Positions 20,732 through 29,475 of a stretch of DNA of 50,209 nt are shown here, piece by piece. The DNA lies in assembly GCA_027366155.1 (NCBI GenBank), contig DAHXKV010000055.1:1-50209 (forward strand). The letters run 5' to 3'. Under the pieces are notes generated by a model. The model ran no database searches, was not told the origin of the DNA, and saw only the letters and a list, made by a program, of their open reading frames with translations. The stretch comes from Candidatus Micrarchaeota archaeon. GTDB lineage: Archaea; Micrarchaeota; Micrarchaeia; Micrarchaeales; CABMGC01. The translations under genes and the position numbers were made by a program. The first letter of the stretch is position 1; every line of letters starts with the position of its first letter.

Positions 20732-22831
20732 ATGCGCAAGAACCAAAATGATCTTACGGACAAGGAGGTGCTTTTGGGTTACAAGAAGGCGCTTTCCTCT
20801 ATGGGGATAAGTGAGCTCATAAGACTCTTGCCTGAAGACAGCCCAGCAAATTACCAGTCCATAATAGCCGATTATGTAGTAAAGGCCATATGGTACTCAA
20901 GACAAGGCACAGATGCGCACAGGCAAAGTGCAGCAAGCCTTCTCTATGGGAAAAATTTTATAAAAAAGGAAGGCACACTGGGAGACATGATTCTTCTAAT
21001 GCAGCTTATTGAAGTTGTAGACCAGCTTGAAAAATTCGAAAAGTATCCAGTAACGGTAAATTCGCTCAAGACTCTACGCGGCACGCTGATAAAAAACCTA
21101 TTTGGAAATAGCAAATATGGCCCTGGACTGAGGAGATACAGGAACAGCACAGGTCCGTACATAACCGAACCGATGGAAAGCATGTCCAACCAACTTAAAA
21201 AAACAATTAGTTTGCTAAACACCAAGCACGAGGATCCAACTGAAGCCTTCATGAATGGTATCCAGTTCTATGCAGAATTCATAAAAATACACCCATTTGA
21301 GGATACTGACGGAAGGACTGCAAGACTGCTATACAACTGGTATGCTATAAAAAACAGGATAAGGGCCATTCATATAAGCGAAGAGTTTAAGGATATGTAC
21401 ACCGAAGTCCTTCACCCTTACTATCTTTCAGGATATATCGGCTCAGCTGTTACCTCGATGCTGCTACTTACGTTAACTCCTAGGCGGATAGACCGGCTTA
21501 AGAAACTTATGAAAAGGGAGGAAACGGATTCATTGACGATAGTGGAGTTGAAAGCACTGCTTAAAGCAAGCCTTAACATGGCAGACCCGGAAGAACTGGG
21601 AAGGGATGTGTCAAGGCTTTTTGAGGCCCGGTCAGAAAAAAAGAACTATTCATATGCAGCTCTATGGCTTTGCAACTTAACTAATCTGGATCACGAAGTT
21701 ATAAGGCGAGCCTACGAAGAAACAGAAGATCCAAAGCTAAGGGTACTTGCAGTTAACGTAATGAGCAAAATAAATTATCAAAAATATAAAGACCTAATAA
21801 TGGGATCACTACTTAAAGACCCTGACGAAAATGTGAGGGCGCAGGCTGTCATGCAGATAGGCCTGAAAGGCGATATTAATAAGATACATCCAAAAATAAT
21901 CGAATCGGAAAAAAGCGCACTTGTACTAATGACTCTTGGCAAAGCCTTGACTTTTGTTGATGGTCATGGGGAAACAGAACCAAACATGCTCCAAAAAACA
22001 ATAAAACGCCTCATGGCAGACGAAGAACCCAATGTGAGACTGAGGGGATACCAGGCATTTGCTGCAAGATCCGGGGTGGAAGAAATAACCGGTATGCTGG
22101 CTGGCGACTTCCTAAAAATTGATTCTATGCTCCAAAAAGAAGTAATTGTAGAACTGAACAGGACTAACAGATTAAACACACCACAAATATCGCGTAGGCT
22201 TTCAGAACTTGCAAAAGACGATATAACAATAAAACAACACCTGCTCGGCGAACTTGGTATTAAAGGCGTTTCAGGGAATGGATACGAGAGTTTATTCAGG
22301 CACATACTCTCAACAAACGGCCACACCGACGGCGAAAGAGCCCATGCGATATATTTGCTAGGGAAGCAAAAGGGCTATGACTACCTATGCGAGCTAAAAG
22401 AACTCCTGGGCCCTGTATACTCGAAACTCGAAAAACTGGCCGTAGCCCTTGTATATCTTGATTCATTAGAAAGCACAAATGGTATTTCCCCACCCAAACA
22501 CACGCTGAACGACATACTTCCTTCAGGATCAAGCCTAGAAATCATGGCAAAGGTGGCTCTGGCAATAGAGGTAAGCAAATCAGGGCACGACATCGATAAC
22601 AGAGTACTCAGTGTGCTCACCGAAGGCAATACAGGTTCCAATCCATTCGGCATGGTCCTTAGGGGGAGAGCCAACGGAGAAACCAACGCAAGAGCAAATG
22701 GAGGGGCAATGGAAACTATCTTTAACGAGATAGTAAGGCTATGTACTAAACACCCAGAACCATCCACTCCAACAACCACTCTACGAGCAGAAGCTCCACG
22801 TAGTCCACGTCCGAGGATGCGCCTGAATTAA
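20732..22831 (+). CDS. Fic (Fido) domain protein with a non-canonical motif, fused to C-terminal HEAT-like repeats
   Basis: The Fic core is FYAEFIKIHPFEDTDGRTARLLYNWY, with the motif at nt 21290-21325. The HEAT / PBS-lyase-like repeats are EDPKLRVLAVNVMSKI, DPDENVRAQAVMQIGLKG and DEEPNVRLRGYQAFAARSG. The tail is Pro/Arg-rich. Confidence 0.75.
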   Translation: MRKNQNDLTDKEVLLGYKKALSSMGISELIRLLPEDSPANYQSIIADYVVKAIWYSRQGTDAHRQSAASLLYGKNFIKKEGTLGDMILLMQLIEVVDQLEKFEKYPVTVNSLKTLRGTLIKNLFGNSKYGPGLRRYRNSTGPYITEPMESMSNQLKKTISLLNTKHEDPTEAFMNGIQFYAEFIKIHPFEDTDGRTARLLYNWYAIKNRIRAIHISEEFKDMYTEVLHPYYLSGYIGSAVTSMLLLTLTPRRIDRLKKLMKREETDSLTIVELKALLKASLNMADPEELGRDVSRLFEARSEKKNYSYAALWLCNLTNLDHEVIRRAYEETEDPKLRVLAVNVMSKINYQKYKDLIMGSLLKDPDENVRAQAVMQIGLKGDINKIHPKIIESEKSALVLMTLGKALTFVDGHGETEPNMLQKTIKRLMADEEPNVRLRGYQAFAARSGVEEITGMLAGDFLKIDSMLQKEVIVELNRTNRLNTPQISRRLSELAKDDITIKQHLLGELGIKGVSGNGYESLFRHILSTNGHTDGERAHAIYLLGKQKGYDYLCELKELLGPVYSKLEKLAVALVYLDSLESTNGISPPKHTLNDILPSGSSLEIMAKVALAIEVSKSGHDIDNRVLSVLTEGNTGSNPFGMVLRGRANGETNARANGGAMETIFNEIVRLCTKHPEPSTPTTTLRAEAPRSPRPRMRLN

Positions 22832-23716: not shown

Positions 23717-23954
23717 AGCCTACCTAAACAAACTTCTAATCCTCTCAAAGCATACAAAAAAGGACAAATCACTTTAGACAGCAACAAATGCGCGAGTTAA
23801 CAACGGAGTTTAAAAGAAACGATAACCGCGAGACCCCTAAGGCAGAATGCTGGATAGCGATGGGGAAGAAAATACAGTATCCTACTTTGTAGGCGTATGC
23901 AAGGCTCGACGGGTCTTTTTGCCTGCTAATACTGCTACCGAAACAAAGGGCTAA

Positions 23955-23962
23955 GTTTAAAT
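23955..23962 (+). promoter_or_regulatory. TATA-like box for the orphan small-ORF unit
   Basis: GTTTAAAT is centred about 26 nt upstream of the GTG at 23984. Confidence 0.35.
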
Positions 23963-24031
23963 CTTTTCAAGTCATAATAATAAGTGGAGCCAGATGACCA
24001 ACTGTCTCCAAATATACGACCAGGTGAAAGA

Positions 24032-24238
24032 ATGGAAAGACAAAAACCAGTAGCGAGCGGCGCATCAACGACAAGACAGGCAGGGCCTGCAGATCAGGCA
24101 GGTATACAGGCAAAGCCCACGTCCATCTCCCAGGCGGAGATGTGGCGCATACAGGCGGCCATAATAGGAGAAAGAAGGCCCCGTACAGTCACAGCGGCTC
24201 CCGGGTTTCTTAAGGATGGCCATCTGCTAAGGGCATAA
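24032..24238 (+). CDS. Small hypothetical protein (68 aa; 84 aa if the GTG at 23984 is used)
   Basis: GGTGA (24023-24027) lies upstream of the ATG at 24032, with a TATA-like box at 23955-23962. A perfect 9-bp hairpin follows 16 nt after the stop. The Gln-Ala dipeptide recurs five times, as CAGGC at in-frame spacings. Confidence 0.3.
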   Translation: MERQKPVASGASTTRQAGPADQAGIQAKPTSISQAEMWRIQAAIIGERRPRTVTAAPGFLKDGHLLRA

Positions 24239-24254
24239 GCAAGACAGAAAATGT

Positions 24255-24278
24255 CCGGTAGCTTTCACAAGCTACCGG
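24255..24278 (+). terminator. Perfect 9-bp hairpin followed by a T-rich stretch
   Basis: CCGGTAGCT-ttcaca-AGCTACCGG is followed by CTTTTCC about 12 nt downstream. Confidence 0.4.
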
Positions 24279-24319
24279 GGCGGGAACTAACTTTTCCTAA
24301 TGCATAAAGCGTAAATACG

Positions 24320-24327
24320 TTATACTT
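24320..24327 (+). promoter_or_regulatory. TATA-like box for the RHH-nucleotidyltransferase gene
   Basis: TTATACTT is centred about 26 nt upstream of the ATG at 24349. Confidence 0.35.
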
Positions 24328-24348
24328 GTATAGTTATCCGGTCTGGAA

Positions 24349-25203
24349 ATGAAGGAAAGACTTACTATAACGCTTGACAGCAAGCTACTAGAAAGTCTCG
24401 ATGCAACGATAGATGGAGTAAATGTGAGGAACAGGTCGCATGCCATAGAGCGCCTCCTCGACATGGTCCTTACGCAGTCTATGACAAAAAAGGCAATCGT
24501 GCTAGCCGGAGGGAACACACTGAGCTTCAAAGGTCAGCACGATGTACCTAAACCAATGCTAATGGTCAAAGGCAGGCCAATCCTTGAGTACGTGATAAGG
24601 GAGCTCAAAAGAAACGAAATAACTGAGGTGCTCATGGCAATAGGCCACGGCGGAGAAAAGATAGTATCATACTTCGGAGACGGCTCAATGTTCGGCGTCA
24701 GTATAAACTACATAAAAGAAGACACACCAAAAGGAACCGCGAATGCACTCTCCCTTGCAAGGGGCCTTGTCGGATCAGCCCCATTTTTTGTAATAAATGG
24801 GGACAACATCTTCAAGATAAACCTTAAGGAAATGTACAAACAGCATGTGTCAACTAAGGCCCTTGCTACCATATCATTAGCAACAGCTGACGTGACCTTA
24901 GGTTTCGGCGTCACACGGCTTGACGGCTTCAAAGTAACCCGCTTTCTGGAGAAGCCAGCCAATGAAAAAGGAAAGCTGGTAAGCGCCGGCATATACTTAT
25001 TCAACCCAGCCATCTTTGACATAATAGAAAAAGAAGGTGCCGCGCGCTCCATGCTTGAACGCAACGTCTTCCCGAAGCTGTCCAGCTCCGGAAACCTGTA
25101 TGGATACGCATTCTCTACGCCATGGTATCCCCTAGATTCCAAGAACATTGGAGAGAGCCTCGCCAAATTGGAAAAGATCGCCGCTACCTTTGAAAGAGAA
25201 TAA
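24349..25203 (+). CDS. Ribbon-helix-helix (CopG/NikR-like) domain fused to a sugar-phosphate nucleotidyltransferase-fold domain
   Basis: The N-terminus MKERLTITLDSKLLESLDATIDGVNVRNRSHAIERLL is RHH-like. The rest is NTP_transferase-like: VLAGG...VPKPML, VINGDNIF, FLEKP and SAGIYLF. Confidence 0.75.
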   Translation: MKERLTITLDSKLLESLDATIDGVNVRNRSHAIERLLDMVLTQSMTKKAIVLAGGNTLSFKGQHDVPKPMLMVKGRPILEYVIRELKRNEITEVLMAIGHGGEKIVSYFGDGSMFGVSINYIKEDTPKGTANALSLARGLVGSAPFFVINGDNIFKINLKEMYKQHVSTKALATISLATADVTLGFGVTRLDGFKVTRFLEKPANEKGKLVSAGIYLFNPAIFDIIEKEGAARSMLERNVFPKLSSSGNLYGYAFSTPWYPLDSKNIGESLAKLEKIAATFERE

Positions 25204-25303
25204 CCGTAATCCACCAGCAACCTGCTCCTAACGCCAGGCTTAAATATCTTAACTTATAATGTATTATCTAGTATTACTTTATCATATAAAGTATGATAAT
25301 TAG

Positions 25304-26215
25304 GTGCAACAATTGGACTTTAGAGCTACAGGTGCAAGGGAAAGGAACCATCTACGAGATAGCTGTGCAGTTCTTTCTTCGTTGCTTGAAGACGTGTACA
25401 GGGCCAAAACACACGAAACCAGGGATATTTCAAGGCCTGAAATAGTAAAACCAGAACCTGGAAAAACAGTTACCTTTTCACACTCCGGAACAGAGCTTTC
25501 TATAATCTGGAATTCTGAAAGAAAATTCAAAGATGCACCTGAAGGGTACACAATGGTTCTGTCAGAAAGCAAGTTCGCAGCTGAATGGAGGCTCGCTTCA
25601 AAGGAAGGGAGGTTCGACGATGTAAATGGGATAATCTCACCTCCGGGGACAAGATATACGGTAGACAAAAAAACCAACAGCCCCATTTACCGTGCATCAA
25701 TGAAGCCTAATGGCGCAGAAGGCAGAGCATTATGTTTCGATTCCCCTGTTGGTTTTTCTAACGGGGACGTGAAAAGGCATCTTTTTGGAGAAGAACCTGT
25801 AAAACTAATGGTGCCCTTAAACCTGTACAATCACAAGCTTGCCGAAGGGGGAACTAAAATACTGTCAAACGCAAAAAAGGATATTGTTATTGGTCCTTCA
25901 AACCAAGAGTTTTCTGCAGGAGGCCCTTTATCAAGGCAAGATTTTCACCTGCATGAGCGCATATGCGAAATTTACATCGCTTTTGGCAGCGTGAAGGTAT
26001 TTTATATATCAAAAGAAGGCCGGATAGAGTATATTGAGGAATCCGACGGAAATGCAATAGTGGTAAAACCCGGAACGCCCCACTACACCATACTTGCCGG
26101 AGAAACTCCTTCATTTGTTATGATGGGAAGTCCTCTACCTCTTTTTGGAGACAAGCATGTGGTCCTTCCGCACGGCGAGATAACCGCGCTTGCAAACGCC
26201 TTTCGTGCAAACTGA
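25304..26215 (+). CDS. Hypothetical protein with a C-terminal cupin domain
   Basis: The cupin motifs are FHLHERICEIYIAFGS and VVKPGTPHYT. The N-terminal ~200 aa are unassigned. The start is uncertain: GTG at 25304, or TTG at 25313 behind AGGTG. Confidence 0.5.
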   Translation: MQQLDFRATGARERNHLRDSCAVLSSLLEDVYRAKTHETRDISRPEIVKPEPGKTVTFSHSGTELSIIWNSERKFKDAPEGYTMVLSESKFAAEWRLASKEGRFDDVNGIISPPGTRYTVDKKTNSPIYRASMKPNGAEGRALCFDSPVGFSNGDVKRHLFGEEPVKLMVPLNLYNHKLAEGGTKILSNAKKDIVIGPSNQEFSAGGPLSRQDFHLHERICEIYIAFGSVKVFYISKEGRIEYIEESDGNAIVVKPGTPHYTILAGETPSFVMMGSPLPLFGDKHVVLPHGEITALANAFRAN

Positions 26216-26224
26216 GTGGTAACA

Positions 26225-26758
26225 ATGGCTAGTGGCAATGCTGGAAAAGGCTATTCTCTCTGGTTGATTCCTGCCAAACCTTTGTACTCAACACTAAAGG
26301 AAAAGATACTCGAACTGGGTTCCAATTACAACGCACCGGAATTTGAACCACACATGACACTTGTGGGAAATATCCGGATGGGCGTGGAAACTGCGATTGC
26401 CAATACCAAAGCACTGGCAGCCGGAATGGCCCGCGTTCCGGGAAGTTTTTCGGGACTCGGAAATTCGGAAGACTACTTCAAATGCGTATACATAGAAATA
26501 AAGAAAACAGACTATCTAATGCGCTACAATCGCGAAGCTAGAAAAGTATTCGGAACTGTGCGGCAAGGGACCTATGAACCACACATAAGCCTTATTTATG
26601 GCTGGATCCCCGCCACTAAGAGGAAGGAGATATCCGAAGGCTTACATATTGATGCAGCGCTCAAATTCCCGTTTGATGCATTGTCTCTGTATTCGACAGA
26701 GGGGCAAGTCGGCGAATGGTCTGAGGCCGCAAGATTCGTCCTCAAGCCTTCAACGTGA
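26225..26758 (+). CDS. 2H phosphoesterase, cyclic phosphodiesterase (CPDase)-like
   Basis: Two HxT/S motifs are present (EPHMTLVG and EPHISLIYG) along with an N-terminal YSLWLIP, which is the CPDase-type layout. An alternative GTG lies at 26216. Confidence 0.65.
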   Translation: MASGNAGKGYSLWLIPAKPLYSTLKEKILELGSNYNAPEFEPHMTLVGNIRMGVETAIANTKALAAGMARVPGSFSGLGNSEDYFKCVYIEIKKTDYLMRYNREARKVFGTVRQGTYEPHISLIYGWIPATKRKEISEGLHIDAALKFPFDALSLYSTEGQVGEWSEAARFVLKPST

Positions 26759-26924: not shown

Positions 26925-27449
26925 ATGTCCTCCGTATTGTCTAGACCCCAAGCTACGTCGTTGCGAAAATTTTCCGAAACTGACCTAAAGGGAGTGATAA
27001 ATCTCTACAGGCAGGGCTTTGGAGGGCCCCCATGGAACCTGGAATTCACAGCCCAATGGGTTGAAGATGAGATAAGAAAGATAAGGAAAGCACCTGAAAG
27101 TCACATGATAGTGGCAGTTTCAGGACCTAAAGTGATAGCGATAAGCGCCGCCCACGTTCTCGACCAGAATGAATTTCCGTTTTTAAGTTCTGTCCTGCGC
27201 GGAAGTAAAACTGCATATGGTGCCGCATTGGTTGTAGACGAAGAACACAGAAGAACCGGCATAGCAAGCAAGCTTGTTGGAGAACGCGTGCCTTTTTTCG
27301 CTAAACGCGGATGTGATCTCATGGTGGGAAGAACAAAAAACCCAAGAATGGAAAACCTATACCACGAACTGGGGTACACCAATACTGGGATAAGAGACCC
27401 AAAATATCCTGACAGCTCGTACTTCCTCCTGGAAATCAAAAGGAGTTAG
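26925..27449 (+). CDS. GNAT-family N-acetyltransferase
   Basis: The acetyl-CoA loop reads LVVDEEHRRTGIASKLV. Size is about 174 aa. Confidence 0.7.
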   Translation: MSSVLSRPQATSLRKFSETDLKGVINLYRQGFGGPPWNLEFTAQWVEDEIRKIRKAPESHMIVAVSGPKVIAISAAHVLDQNEFPFLSSVLRGSKTAYGAALVVDEEHRRTGIASKLVGERVPFFAKRGCDLMVGRTKNPRMENLYHELGYTNTGIRDPKYPDSSYFLLEIKRS

Positions 27450-27450
27450 C

Positions 27451-28545
27451 ATGGACGCTATTGAACTAACCAAAGAGCTCATAATTGAAAACTCGGAAAA
27501 TAACAAAGCAGGAGAGCTTGGTATTGCAAAGCTAATAAGCGAAAAGCTGGATAACTTGTCTATAAAATATGCTCTTCTCCCATTCGGCGGCCAAAGAGCA
27601 AACCTCATCGCAGAGATAGGTACGGGGAAAGACGGGTTGATGCTCAACGGCCATCTCGACACGGTACCGATAGGTGACGAAACTAAATGGCACCATAGCC
27701 AGGGGGAAGAAACACGCGGGAGGATATATGGCCGCGGAGCGTCCGACATGAAAGGCGGAATCGCCTCCATGCTGTCTGCTTTAGAAAAGGCAAACACGCT
27801 GCGCCTAAACAAGAGAATACTCCTTGTCTTGGTTTCCGATGAAGAGTCATTTTCCTCAGGGTCACTCAAACTGCTAAAAAAACACCACAATCTCTTAAAG
27901 GGAGTCAGATACGGGATAATCTCAGAACCTACTGGCCTGGGAGTACAGATAGCACAGAAGGGTGCAGTCGGCATAAAAATCGAAGTGAGCGGCAAGCCGG
28001 CGCATGGATCAACTCCGTGGAAAGGAAGAAACGCGATAGTAGATGCGTCAAAACTTATAACCCAACTCCAAAAAGACTCAGGTTCACTTAAAAAACACAA
28101 ACTATTCGGCAGAAGCAGCCAAAACATAGGCACGATTACCGGAGGAACCATGGGCAATGTTGTCCCAGAAGCCTGCACCATTGAGATAGACAGAAGGATA
28201 ATCCCCGGCGAAACAGGAAAAGCCGCACTTTCCAAGATACGTGACACGATATCAAAACAGCGAATAAAAGCGAAAGCGTCGATAACTTTTGATGCGCCTC
28301 CATTTAACCTCGATTCAAGCTCTCGGATTGCATCTCTTGTAAAAACCCACTCCAAGACGCAATTCCTCTACTCCAACGGATATACTGAAGCAGAGCTTTA
28401 CAAGAGGCTTGCCGGAATAGACTCTGTTGTTTTTGGCCCGGGTGAAAAAAGAATGGCGCATACATACGACGAAAGCATAAGCATAAAAAAACTAAGGGCG
28501 CATTCGGAATGCCTTGTCTCAATAATAAGGGACTATGCAACATAA
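27451..28545 (+). CDS. M20-family metallopeptidase / deacylase (ArgE/DapE-like)
   Basis: The motifs are GHLDTVP, GRGASDMKGG, SDEE and GKPAHGSTP. It starts 1 nt after the GNAT stop, behind AGGAG. Confidence 0.8.
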   Translation: MDAIELTKELIIENSENNKAGELGIAKLISEKLDNLSIKYALLPFGGQRANLIAEIGTGKDGLMLNGHLDTVPIGDETKWHHSQGEETRGRIYGRGASDMKGGIASMLSALEKANTLRLNKRILLVLVSDEESFSSGSLKLLKKHHNLLKGVRYGIISEPTGLGVQIAQKGAVGIKIEVSGKPAHGSTPWKGRNAIVDASKLITQLQKDSGSLKKHKLFGRSSQNIGTITGGTMGNVVPEACTIEIDRRIIPGETGKAALSKIRDTISKQRIKAKASITFDAPPFNLDSSSRIASLVKTHSKTQFLYSNGYTEAELYKRLAGIDSVVFGPGEKRMAHTYDESISIKKLRAHSECLVSIIRDYAT

Positions 28546-28569: not shown

Positions 28570-29475
28570 ATGGGAAACATAATAGCAATAGATGCAGGCG
28601 CCACTAACCTGAGGATAGCGCTTATCGACGGAAAGGGAAAGATCCTATCCCGTTTGTCATCAGTTACTGATGGGCCAAACCTCCTAAGACAACTATACGA
28701 AGGGATAGATGCCCATGACGCGTTTGAAGGCATTGCTGTGGCATTTGCAGGCCCGATAAGCAGGAAGACTGGTGCCATACTCAAATCACCAAATCTGGGC
28801 ATACAGGGGCTGAATCTTGTGGGTCTGCTTGAAAAGAAATATGGCAAAAAAGCAATCCTGATGAACGACTGCGTAGCTGCTGTGCTCGCTGAAAAGTACT
28901 ACGGAGCCGGTAAAGATTGCGACAACCTTGCTTATGTAACCATTAGCACGGGTATAGGGTGCGGCGTTATTATTGACGGGAAAGTCCTCCTCGGAAAAGA
29001 TGGAAATGCGCATGAAGTGGGCCATATGGTCATTGATCAGGACTCTCTACTCAGGTGTGGCTGCGGCAGCTATGGGCACTGGGAAGCATATTGCTCAGGA
29101 AAAAACATGCCCCGGTATGTGGGGCACCTGATCAAGACTGAGTATGCAGGAGAGCCAAGCGCGTTGTCTATCGGGAGAAAAAAAGCCCCTGCCGAACACC
29201 TGTTTGCAGTAAAAGGGGACAGGGTTGCATCGGAAATAATCGGAAAAATAGGCATGATAAACGCCACTGGCTTTGCAAACATAATAAATGTATACGACCC
29301 GGAACTAATAACTGTGGGCGGCTCTGTAGCTCTAAAAAACAAGCGCATACTTGAAGACATCAAGCGCAACGTTCACAAATACGCCATAAACCGCATGCCT
29401 GAAATACGACTTACCTCTTTGGGGGATGACATCTGCCTTTACGGGGCAGCTGCTGGCTTCAGGTACTTTGGATAA
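28570..29475 (+). CDS. ROK-family sugar kinase (glucokinase-like)
   Basis: The motifs are IIAIDAGATNLRIA, GIGCGVIIDGK, the zinc motif GHMVID...CGCGSYGHWEAYCSG, and ITVGGSV. Confidence 0.85.
   Translation: MGNIIAIDAGATNLRIALIDGKGKILSRLSSVTDGPNLLRQLYEGIDAHDAFEGIAVAFAGPISRKTGAILKSPNLGIQGLNLVGLLEKKYGKKAILMNDCVAAVLAEKYYGAGKDCDNLAYVTISTGIGCGVIIDGKVLLGKDGNAHEVGHMVIDQDSLLRCGCGSYGHWEAYCSGKNMPRYVGHLIKTEYAGEPSALSIGRKKAPAEHLFAVKGDRVASEIIGKIGMINATGFANIINVYDPELITVGGSVALKNKRILEDIKRNVHKYAINRMPEIRLTSLGDDICLYGAAAGFRYFG

Follow-up and report, generated by a model that had tools for sequence, protein, structure and literature searches.

A 50,209-nt stretch of DNA from a Candidatus Micrarchaeota archaeon (assembly GCA_027366155.1, contig DAHXKV010000055.1, forward strand; hereafter the window) carries at positions 24349-25203 a gene whose product joins a DNA-binding domain of the ribbon-helix-helix (RHH) type to a sugar-1-phosphate nucleotidyltransferase (NT) fold with degenerate catalytic motifs. 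This fusion protein is probably a one-component, ligand-sensing transcription repressor whose sensor is a pseudoenzyme, made from a retired enzyme. An initial annotation of the sequence had proposed an RHH one-component regulator in which the enzyme-like domain was recruited as a sensor, and the clade-wide loss of catalytic motifs, the purifying selection on the NT-like domain and a DNA motif that travels with the gene all favour that proposal.

A NikR-type ribbon-helix-helix domain precedes a nucleotidyltransferase fold

The open reading frame (ORF) begins at the first ATG after a stop codon and encodes 284 residues (P0001). In Pfam, RHH_1 was matched at residues 4-39 with 20.9 bits, just over the cut-off of 20.5, and NTP_transferase (PF00483) at residues 48-255 with an E value of 3e-33. 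NCBIfam returned sub-threshold matches only, to many sugar-1-phosphate nucleotidyltransferases, together with a weak match to NikR. The first 47 residues align to NikR of E. coli (1q5v/2hzv, E 4e-4) and of P. horikoshii (2bj1), which places R4, T6 and T8 of the fusion protein on R3, T5 and T7 of NikR, and these three residues are 93-100% conserved across the family (143 members). In NikR, Arg3, Thr5 and Thr7 are the strand residues that contact the bases (structure 2hzv). In the AlphaFold2 model, which was built with 72 relatives (pLDDT 89, pTM 0.81), an extended N-terminus is followed by RHH helices at residues 11-20 and 29-43 (pLDDT 82-92), and the RHH domain (residues 1-43) is connected by a four-residue linker to the NT fold. 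The NT-like part adopts an RmlA/MurU/GMPP-like fold (Foldseek TM 0.65-0.88), with matches to MurU (4y7t, TM up to 0.88), RmlA (3hl3, TM 0.79; also 4ecm) and VTC1 (7x8j). The initial annotation had read the N-terminal ~43 residues as a CopG/NikR-type RHH domain, and Pfam, the NikR alignment and the two modelled helices agree with it. Its assignment of the remainder to an NT fold also holds, with PKPML (67-71), INGDN (149-153), EKP (201-203) and AGIYLF (213-218) all present. A two-copy homodimer prediction scored 0.25, under the 0.42 mark, and was not used as evidence either way. Identity as NikR was rejected because the C-terminal 237 residues form an NT fold and there is no ACT-like nickel-binding domain. 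Literature searches turned up no published account of the RHH-NT architecture, although one may still exist; the combination of domains is new within a known kind, that of RHH regulators which carry a ligand-binding domain or one derived from an enzyme.

The only other RHH protein in this genome is of the true NikR type, with I/S/S rather than R/T/T on the strand. Its gene (contig 57:760-1173, minus strand) encodes an RHH domain and a His-rich C-terminal domain, ~127 residues from the first Met. The same 45 NikR-type residues occur at the end of another contig (contig 4:10115-10846), in frame with an unrelated ORF, and this duplication is probably an assembly overlap.

The initial annotation had suggested a search of domain-architecture databases for RHH plus NTP_transferase. 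Here both domains were found by Pfam, and a scan of one genome per species located the fusion at 558 loci or more. About 80 homologs are full-length relatives of ~280 residues. The archaeal hosts are Micrarchaeota, Altiarchaeota, Woesearchaeota, Nanoarchaeia, Iainarchaeota, Aenigmatarchaeota and Parvarchaeota, and the bacterial hosts comprise many lineages of the Candidate Phyla Radiation (CPR; Patescibacteria). Family members are named in databases as nucleotidyltransferase only; in Pfam, the RHH domain scores E <= 0.01 in 46 of 72 members. The fusion is thus not rare, and the signature is intact in most members of this large family.

Catalytic motifs are lost throughout a Micrarchaeota clade while the fold is conserved

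The active site was read by alignment to Arabidopsis VTC1, with the site residues taken from PMC9168903, where Thr12/Arg13 form the pyrophosphate site and Asp219 is described as 'catalytically critical'. Thr12/Arg13 of this pyrophosphate loop correspond to L58/S59 of the fusion protein, the Pro of the signature to G62, and the metal-binding Asp219 of the W-x-D-x-G motif to P261. The initial annotation had called the LAGGxGTRLxPLT signature degenerate and had located it correctly, at nt 24502-24558 (residues 52-70); GxGTR..RPxT is gone and the PK lysine, K68, is kept. In the AlphaFold2 model the replaced loop folds as a small beta-hairpin with strands at residues 57-60 and 63-67. Counterparts are retained for VTC1 Lys23, Asp111, Glu162/Lys163 and Glu195 (K68, D152, E201/K202 and E237), as are the base/sugar contacts at VTC1 position 80, Gly85, Asn109 and Gly146 (E124, G129, N150 and G187). 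Three other NT genes are present in this genome (778 kb, 78% complete), and all of them bear the signature.

Seventy sequences of the degenerate clade were compared with 73 signature-bearing ones. All archaeal members outside Micrarchaeota have the canonical loop and CPR members have a Lys or Asn variant of it, and the loss of both the loop and the metal-binding Asp is confined to one Micrarchaeota clade that includes this gene. Loop sequences vary within that clade, and some members also lack the PK and EKP lysines (K68 is conserved in 66% and K202 in 89%). The Asp of W-x-D-x-G, 85% conserved in signature-bearing members, is lost. The remaining fold is conserved, with additional clade-specific conserved positions, and the base/sugar-contact positions E124, G129, N150, G187 and E201 are 76-100% conserved. 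In a tree of 80 fusion proteins the degenerate clade is monophyletic (22 rows, SH-aLRT 95). The ratio of nonsynonymous to synonymous substitution rates (dN/dS) of the NT-like domain is 0.06 against the ortholog at the related locus L094, which is 86% identical. Read together, the sequences indicate that the NT-like domain is in use under strong purifying selection, but probably not for catalysis.

The same tree yielded further observations on the family. All CPR members fall into a single clade within the archaeal part of the tree, with Altiarchaeota as its sister group (SH-aLRT 99), and this nesting suggests that the regulator passed between the domains along with its putative operator. One CPR subclade (L034, L042, L056 and L063) has Asn at the position of the signature Arg, where other CPR members have Lys, and keeps RP-x-T and W-x-D-x-G; here the catalytic loop may have eroded a second time, independently. 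The contigs of seven loci (L005, L056, L058, L063, L064, L060 and L082) are titled Saccharimonadales, Gammaproteobacteria, Aminicenantes or Methanosarcinales, whereas the tree places them in Micrarchaeota, CPR or Woesearchaeota, and they are likely mis-binned.

A NikR half-site repeated at 10-bp intervals accompanies the fusion gene

Because the reading strand matches that of NikR, NikR-like half-sites were sought upstream of family genes. The hexamer GTATGA/TCATAC is the operator half-site of E. coli NikR (PMC7055735), and TCATAC repeats were seen in many of the family upstream regions. The exact repeat TCATAC-N4-TCATAC stands upstream of 22/79 family genes; in the comparison with other genes of the same loci the counts are 22/78 against 1/709 (p 9e-23), the lone non-family occurrence being a PfkB sugar kinase gene that adjoins a fusion gene. 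The 10-bp period was kept in all instances of the exact repeat (23/23). In archaeal loci the coding strand carries TCATAC at a distance of 40-85 nt ahead of the ATG, and in CPR loci GTATGA lies mostly 13-36 nt before it. Across 40 related genomes, the exact tandem pattern gave 9 matches against 9 in a reversed control, so there is no genome-wide enrichment, and only three of the matches, those with the consensus spacer, are informative. Upstream of three Altiarchaeota genes (L026, L032 and L033), inverted TCATAT and [G/A]TATGA were seen by eye 13 nt apart, a layout nearer to the palindromic one of NikR.

Predicted sites mark an intact paralog and the operon downstream

A position weight matrix (PWM) was built from other genomes only and run over all 1.55 million positions of this genome, and the chance level was taken from 30 simulated genomes, whose best matches had a mean of 16.7 and a maximum of 21.4. 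The top match, at 22.3, exceeds the best of each simulated genome. It lies on contig 41, upstream of a signature-bearing NT paralog: three phased hexamers occupy 670-695, with a TATA box (658-665) before them and the ATG of the paralog (701) after them. In all genomes of the genus that hold the paralog (7/7), a TATA box with GTATGA boxes behind it stands within 60 nt of the paralog ATG. In one of these relatives (G001), the paralog and dn1, which is the gene directly downstream of the fusion gene in the window, are divergent neighbours sharing one perfect site. An integrase-core gene fragment of insertion sequence (IS) type lies directly upstream of the paralog in this genome (contig 41:148-564, minus strand). 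Since this fragment adjoins the paralog here and dn1 adjoins it in G001, an IS-linked rearrangement that split the regulon in this genome is suggested.

The matches ranked second and third score 15.0 and 14.2 and lie together at 25269-25299, within the 100-nt spacer that follows the fusion gene, but scores of this size are at the chance level, and the sites therefore carry weight by their location and conservation only. In this dn1 promoter four hexamers keep a 10-bp phase behind a TATA box, and the window holds one copy of the two-hexamer pattern where 0.01 would be expected. The core of the putative operator is also conserved ahead of the dn1 orthologs of L094, L095, L007, L039 and L008. At six loci where dn1 is divergent from the fusion gene (L010, L011, L012, L014, L017 and L022), an exact tandem site either overlaps the dn1 start or is no more than 25 nt away from it, at 57-75 nt from the fusion ATG. 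A perfect site also precedes the gene for a bifunctional phosphoglucose/phosphomannose isomerase (PGI/PMI) in two relatives of the genus; by PWM, no site was found at the PGI/PMI (contig 37) or phosphoglucomutase (PGM; contig 22) genes of this genome.

The initial annotation had put the target at the fusion gene's own promoter (24280-24348). The sites lie instead at 25261-25296 and before the contig-41 paralog, and in the region scanned around the promoter (24151-24349) the best PWM score was -0.7. Autoregulation there is not supported, the weak palindrome 16 nt before the ATG not being conserved in L094.

Proposed mechanism and alternative explanations

In the repressor that we favour, the RHH domain would pair with that of a second copy to form a two-stranded sheet whose Arg4, Thr6 and Thr8 read GTATGA-like hexamers. 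Arrays of two to four phased hexamers imply that several RHH dimers are held together, most simply by the NT-like domains, which would keep the dimers joined on hexamers 10 bp apart. The NT-like domain would have given up synthesis of nucleoside diphosphate (NDP)-sugars and would bind a nucleotide-sugar or sugar-phosphate instead; since the triphosphate and metal sites are lost and the base/sugar positions kept, a sensor of NDP-sugars or sugar-phosphates fits better than a sensor of nucleoside triphosphates. The predicted targets are the operon of a bicupin and a cyclic-phosphodiesterase gene (dn1 and dn2, behind the sites at 25261-25296) and the intact NT paralog on contig 41. Sites between the TATA box and the start codon are the usual geometry by which archaeal repressors block the recruitment of polymerase, and the bound protein would block RNA polymerase recruitment from this position. 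The logic that we favour would be feedback by the pathway product.

What the analysis shows directly is the fusion architecture, which motifs are missing, that the NT-like domain is under purifying selection, and where the operator motif lies and that it accompanies the family. Binding to DNA as such, the absence of catalysis, the identity of the ligand and the direction in which it acts are inferred. Several points weigh against the repressor reading. The window sites score no better than the best sites of random genomes, and the operator in this subclade consists of an inverted core with flanking boxes, in place of the clean direct repeat seen elsewhere. It is also unusual for an RHH repressor gene to have no good site in its own promoter, and at 78% completeness of the genome the predicted regulon is incomplete. 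The root of the tree is weak (support 41), so the direction of change, a derived loss, rests on outgroup parsimony, the unfused outgroups all being signature-bearing. Given the retention of K68, D152, E201/K202 and E237, and a lysine in the new hairpin (K61), residual or altered catalysis might also persist.

The last point leads to the alternative of a bifunctional trigger enzyme, that is, an active NT which uses other phosphate-binding residues, binds DNA as well, in the manner of PutA, BirA or NadR, and couples catalysis to repression through substrate occupancy. PutA shows that an RHH domain on an active enzyme is viable (PMC5293562), and most members outside Micrarchaeota carry the full signature and may well work in this way. 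For the protein studied here, where W259 is kept along with the residues just named and the replaced loop contains a basic residue, we nonetheless consider it unlikely: the pyrophosphate-binding Thr/Arg and the equivalent of VTC1 D219 are both gone, the loop varies across the clade, some members have lost even the PK and EKP lysines, and three intact paralogs cover the enzymatic need. Less probable still is that the protein regulates by binding DNA with the NT-like domain as an oligomerisation scaffold only, control being exerted by the protein's own level without any sensing. Enzymes of the NT fold are commonly dimers or tetramers and phased arrays of hexamers require a higher-order assembly, as such a scaffold would provide, but a pure scaffold would not need the base/sugar-contact positions that are conserved in the clade.

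It is also conceivable, but very improbable, that the RHH-like segment does not bind DNA at all, the hexamers being promoter elements or the sites of another factor and the protein a divergent enzyme or subunit. The borderline Pfam score of the RHH domain, here and in the members that fail E <= 0.01, would allow this, and the hexamers are A+T-rich like archaeal promoters. Yet the motif goes with the fusion gene in archaea and bacteria alike and keeps its period of exactly 10 bp, it is the half-site of NikR, an RHH protein with the same strand residues, and those residues are nearly invariant in the family, while no other R/T/T RHH protein exists in this genome. A repressor with a pseudoenzyme sensor therefore remains the reading that we prefer for this protein.

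Downstream operon and neighbouring genes

The coordinates of the gene, its motifs, the predicted regulatory elements and the downstream operon are collected in Table 1.

Table 1. Positions in the window of the fusion gene, its domains and motifs, candidate regulatory elements and the downstream genes
Feature	Coordinates	Strand	Basis
Weak palindrome TTATAC-2 nt-GTATAG, 16 nt before ATG; doubtful low-affinity auto-operator	24320..24333	+	Sequence; not conserved in L094
RHH + NT-like fusion gene	24349..25203	+	ORF, translation, Pfam; ~80 full-length homologs, at least 558 loci
NikR-type RHH domain (residues 1-43; strand R4, T6, T8)	24349..24477	+	Pfam RHH_1, NikR alignment, model helices
Sugar-1-phosphate NT-like domain (residues 48-284), proposed sensor/oligomerisation module	24490..25200	+	PF00483, Foldseek, dN/dS 0.06
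Degenerate signature loop (residues 52-70), now a variable beta-hairpin	24502..24558	+	Alignments, model; VTC1 site PMC9168903
W259-Y-P261, Pro in place of the metal-binding Asp of W-x-D-x-G	25123..25131	+	Alignment to VTC1 W217/D219
TATA-like box of downstream operon (second candidate 25253-25260)	25240..25247	+	Conserved with L094 orthologous intergenic region
Predicted operator: GTATTA 25261, GTATTA 25271, inverted TCATAT 25282, GTATGA 25291	25261..25296	+	PWM ranks 2-3, phase, conservation
dn1, bicupin, conserved His/His/Glu/His site	25304..26215	+	Alignment, model pLDDT 85.7, fold matches
dn2, 2H-type cyclic phosphodiesterase-like	26216..26758	+	PF07823 E 1e-16; two H-x-T/S motifs; abuts dn1

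The first downstream gene, dn1, starts at GTG 25304 or, more likely, at TTG 25313 behind AGGTG (25302-25306), and its product had no significant match in Pfam or NCBIfam. Its nearest folds are IolB-like 2qjv (Z 15.9) and KduI (Z 13.6). The initial annotation had pointed to a cupin gene behind the fusion gene and to bacterial ManC as an analogy. A cupin gene, namely a bicupin, does follow, but the analogy is weak, with isomerases of the IolB/KduI type the closest; a ManC-like reading was rejected since phosphomannose isomerases reach only Z 8-9 against the 15.9 of the IolB-like fold. Relatives of dn1 were taken from the loci, a word-based homolog search having given 4 proteins only.

By their abutting positions dn1 and dn2 are probably in one operon, and dn2 follows dn1 in at least 10 related loci. 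The pair is a conserved Micrarchaeota partner of the fusion gene, lying downstream of it here and in L007, L039 and L094 and divergent from it in L010, L011, L012, L014, L017, L020, L022 and L095; in L095 a ROK kinase gene directly after the phosphodiesterase gene completes the operon. Family-wide, the fusion gene has as neighbours PGM/phosphomannomutase (immediately downstream, ~25 loci), GlpX fructose-1,6-bisphosphatase (divergent), phosphofructokinase, phosphoglycerate kinase, ROK and PfkB kinases, PGI/PMI and epimerase/dehydratases, a context of hexose-phosphate and NDP-sugar metabolism. Breakdown of NDP-hexoses yields sugar 1,2-cyclic phosphates, and enzymes of the cyclic phosphodiesterase (CPDase) family open 1,2-cyclic phosphates. 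From this chemistry one may speculate that the bicupin-phosphodiesterase pair, a predicted target of the regulator, might serve to salvage such products as sugar phosphates.

Elsewhere in the window, genes for a GNAT acetyltransferase and an M20 peptidase (26925-28545) lie between dn2 and a ROK glucokinase gene (28570-29475). Upstream of the fusion gene is a 630-nt stretch (23717-24348) that holds no convincing gene and no Rfam or tRNA match; within it, ~70 nt before the fusion gene, is a perfect 10-bp hairpin with a 4-nt loop (24255-24264/24269-24278). Further upstream, 20732-22831 (plus strand) encodes a 699-residue protein with a Fic/DOC domain (residues 107-204) followed by HEAT repeats, which is unusual in a 0.8-Mb archaeal genome.

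Significance and comparison with known systems

DPANN archaea and CPR bacteria have tiny genomes and depend on hosts, and almost no transcription factors have been characterised in them. The RHH-NT family brings to them a predicted operator and a predicted regulon of sugar activation and of branch points of gluconeogenesis and glycolysis. In a wider picture, which we put forward more tentatively than the reading of the single protein, RHH-NT proteins might be the main regulators of hexose-phosphate and nucleotide-sugar metabolism in both groups and have been exchanged between the domains; in Micrarchaeota they might have become pure product sensors, and a dead copy might use NikR-type boxes to repress both its live paralog and a salvage operon. 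Of the proteins that databases list as 'sugar phosphate nucleotidyltransferase', hundreds are probably regulators. The family is a natural series from signature-bearing, possibly active enzymes to pseudoenzyme forms, and would offer a clean example of the change from enzyme to sensor while a paralog keeps the chemistry. What this locus adds is the pseudoenzyme state throughout a clade, a gene whose own promoter lacks an operator, and the bicupin operon and intact paralog as predicted targets. How the supply of cell-surface sugar precursors is tuned becomes a question testable with recombinant protein alone.

RHH dimers of the MetJ, Arc, CopG and omega types bind cooperatively to tandem, helically phased short repeats, and MetJ does so with a small-molecule co-repressor. 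These proteins are small and have no separate enzyme-derived sensor domain, and their repeats differ from the present ones in length and sequence. NadR and BirA are repressors with a nucleotide-transferring enzyme domain whose ligand acts as co-repressor; unlike the fusion protein, they have helix-turn-helix heads, other enzyme folds and active catalysis, and they belong to bacteria with ordinary genomes.

By sequence the DNA-binding head is nearest to NikR, which has the same Arg/Thr/Thr strand positions and the same GTATGA/TCATAC half-site and follows the same logic of an RHH domain with a C-terminal domain for ligand binding and oligomerisation, the ligand binding being inferred here. The sensor of NikR is, however, an ACT-like domain that binds nickel through a His/Cys site, in place of an NT fold. 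Its two half-sites are 16 bp apart, whereas the sites predicted here form 10-bp-phased arrays or a tight inverted core, and it controls nickel uptake, whereas sugar-metabolism genes are the predicted targets here. In trifunctional PutA, an N-terminal RHH domain is fused to a proline-catabolic enzyme body that is also a transcriptional repressor (PMC5293562). With its RHH domain on an enzyme body, PutA offers the best precedent for those family members that bear the signature; it differs in being catalytically active and in switching by redox-driven membrane binding, while the present protein has an unrelated enzyme fold and, in its clade, has lost catalytic motifs.

The nearest parallel on the side of the NT fold is GMPPA. 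This non-catalytic paralogue of the GDP-mannose pyrophosphorylase GMPPB binds GDP-mannose, the reaction product, and regulates its active counterpart (PMC11228364, PMC9168903). GMPPA (7d72) has the same fold, and the proposed circuit, in which a dead copy would regulate a live one, is analogous. GMPPA acts allosterically within a protein complex and has no DNA-binding domain, whereas control here would be transcriptional and no contact with the paralog is proposed. The boxes predicted in the promoter of the intact paralog, found throughout the genus genomes that hold it, suggest that the active paralogue is controlled at the level of transcription, unlike the complex formation by which GMPPA works.

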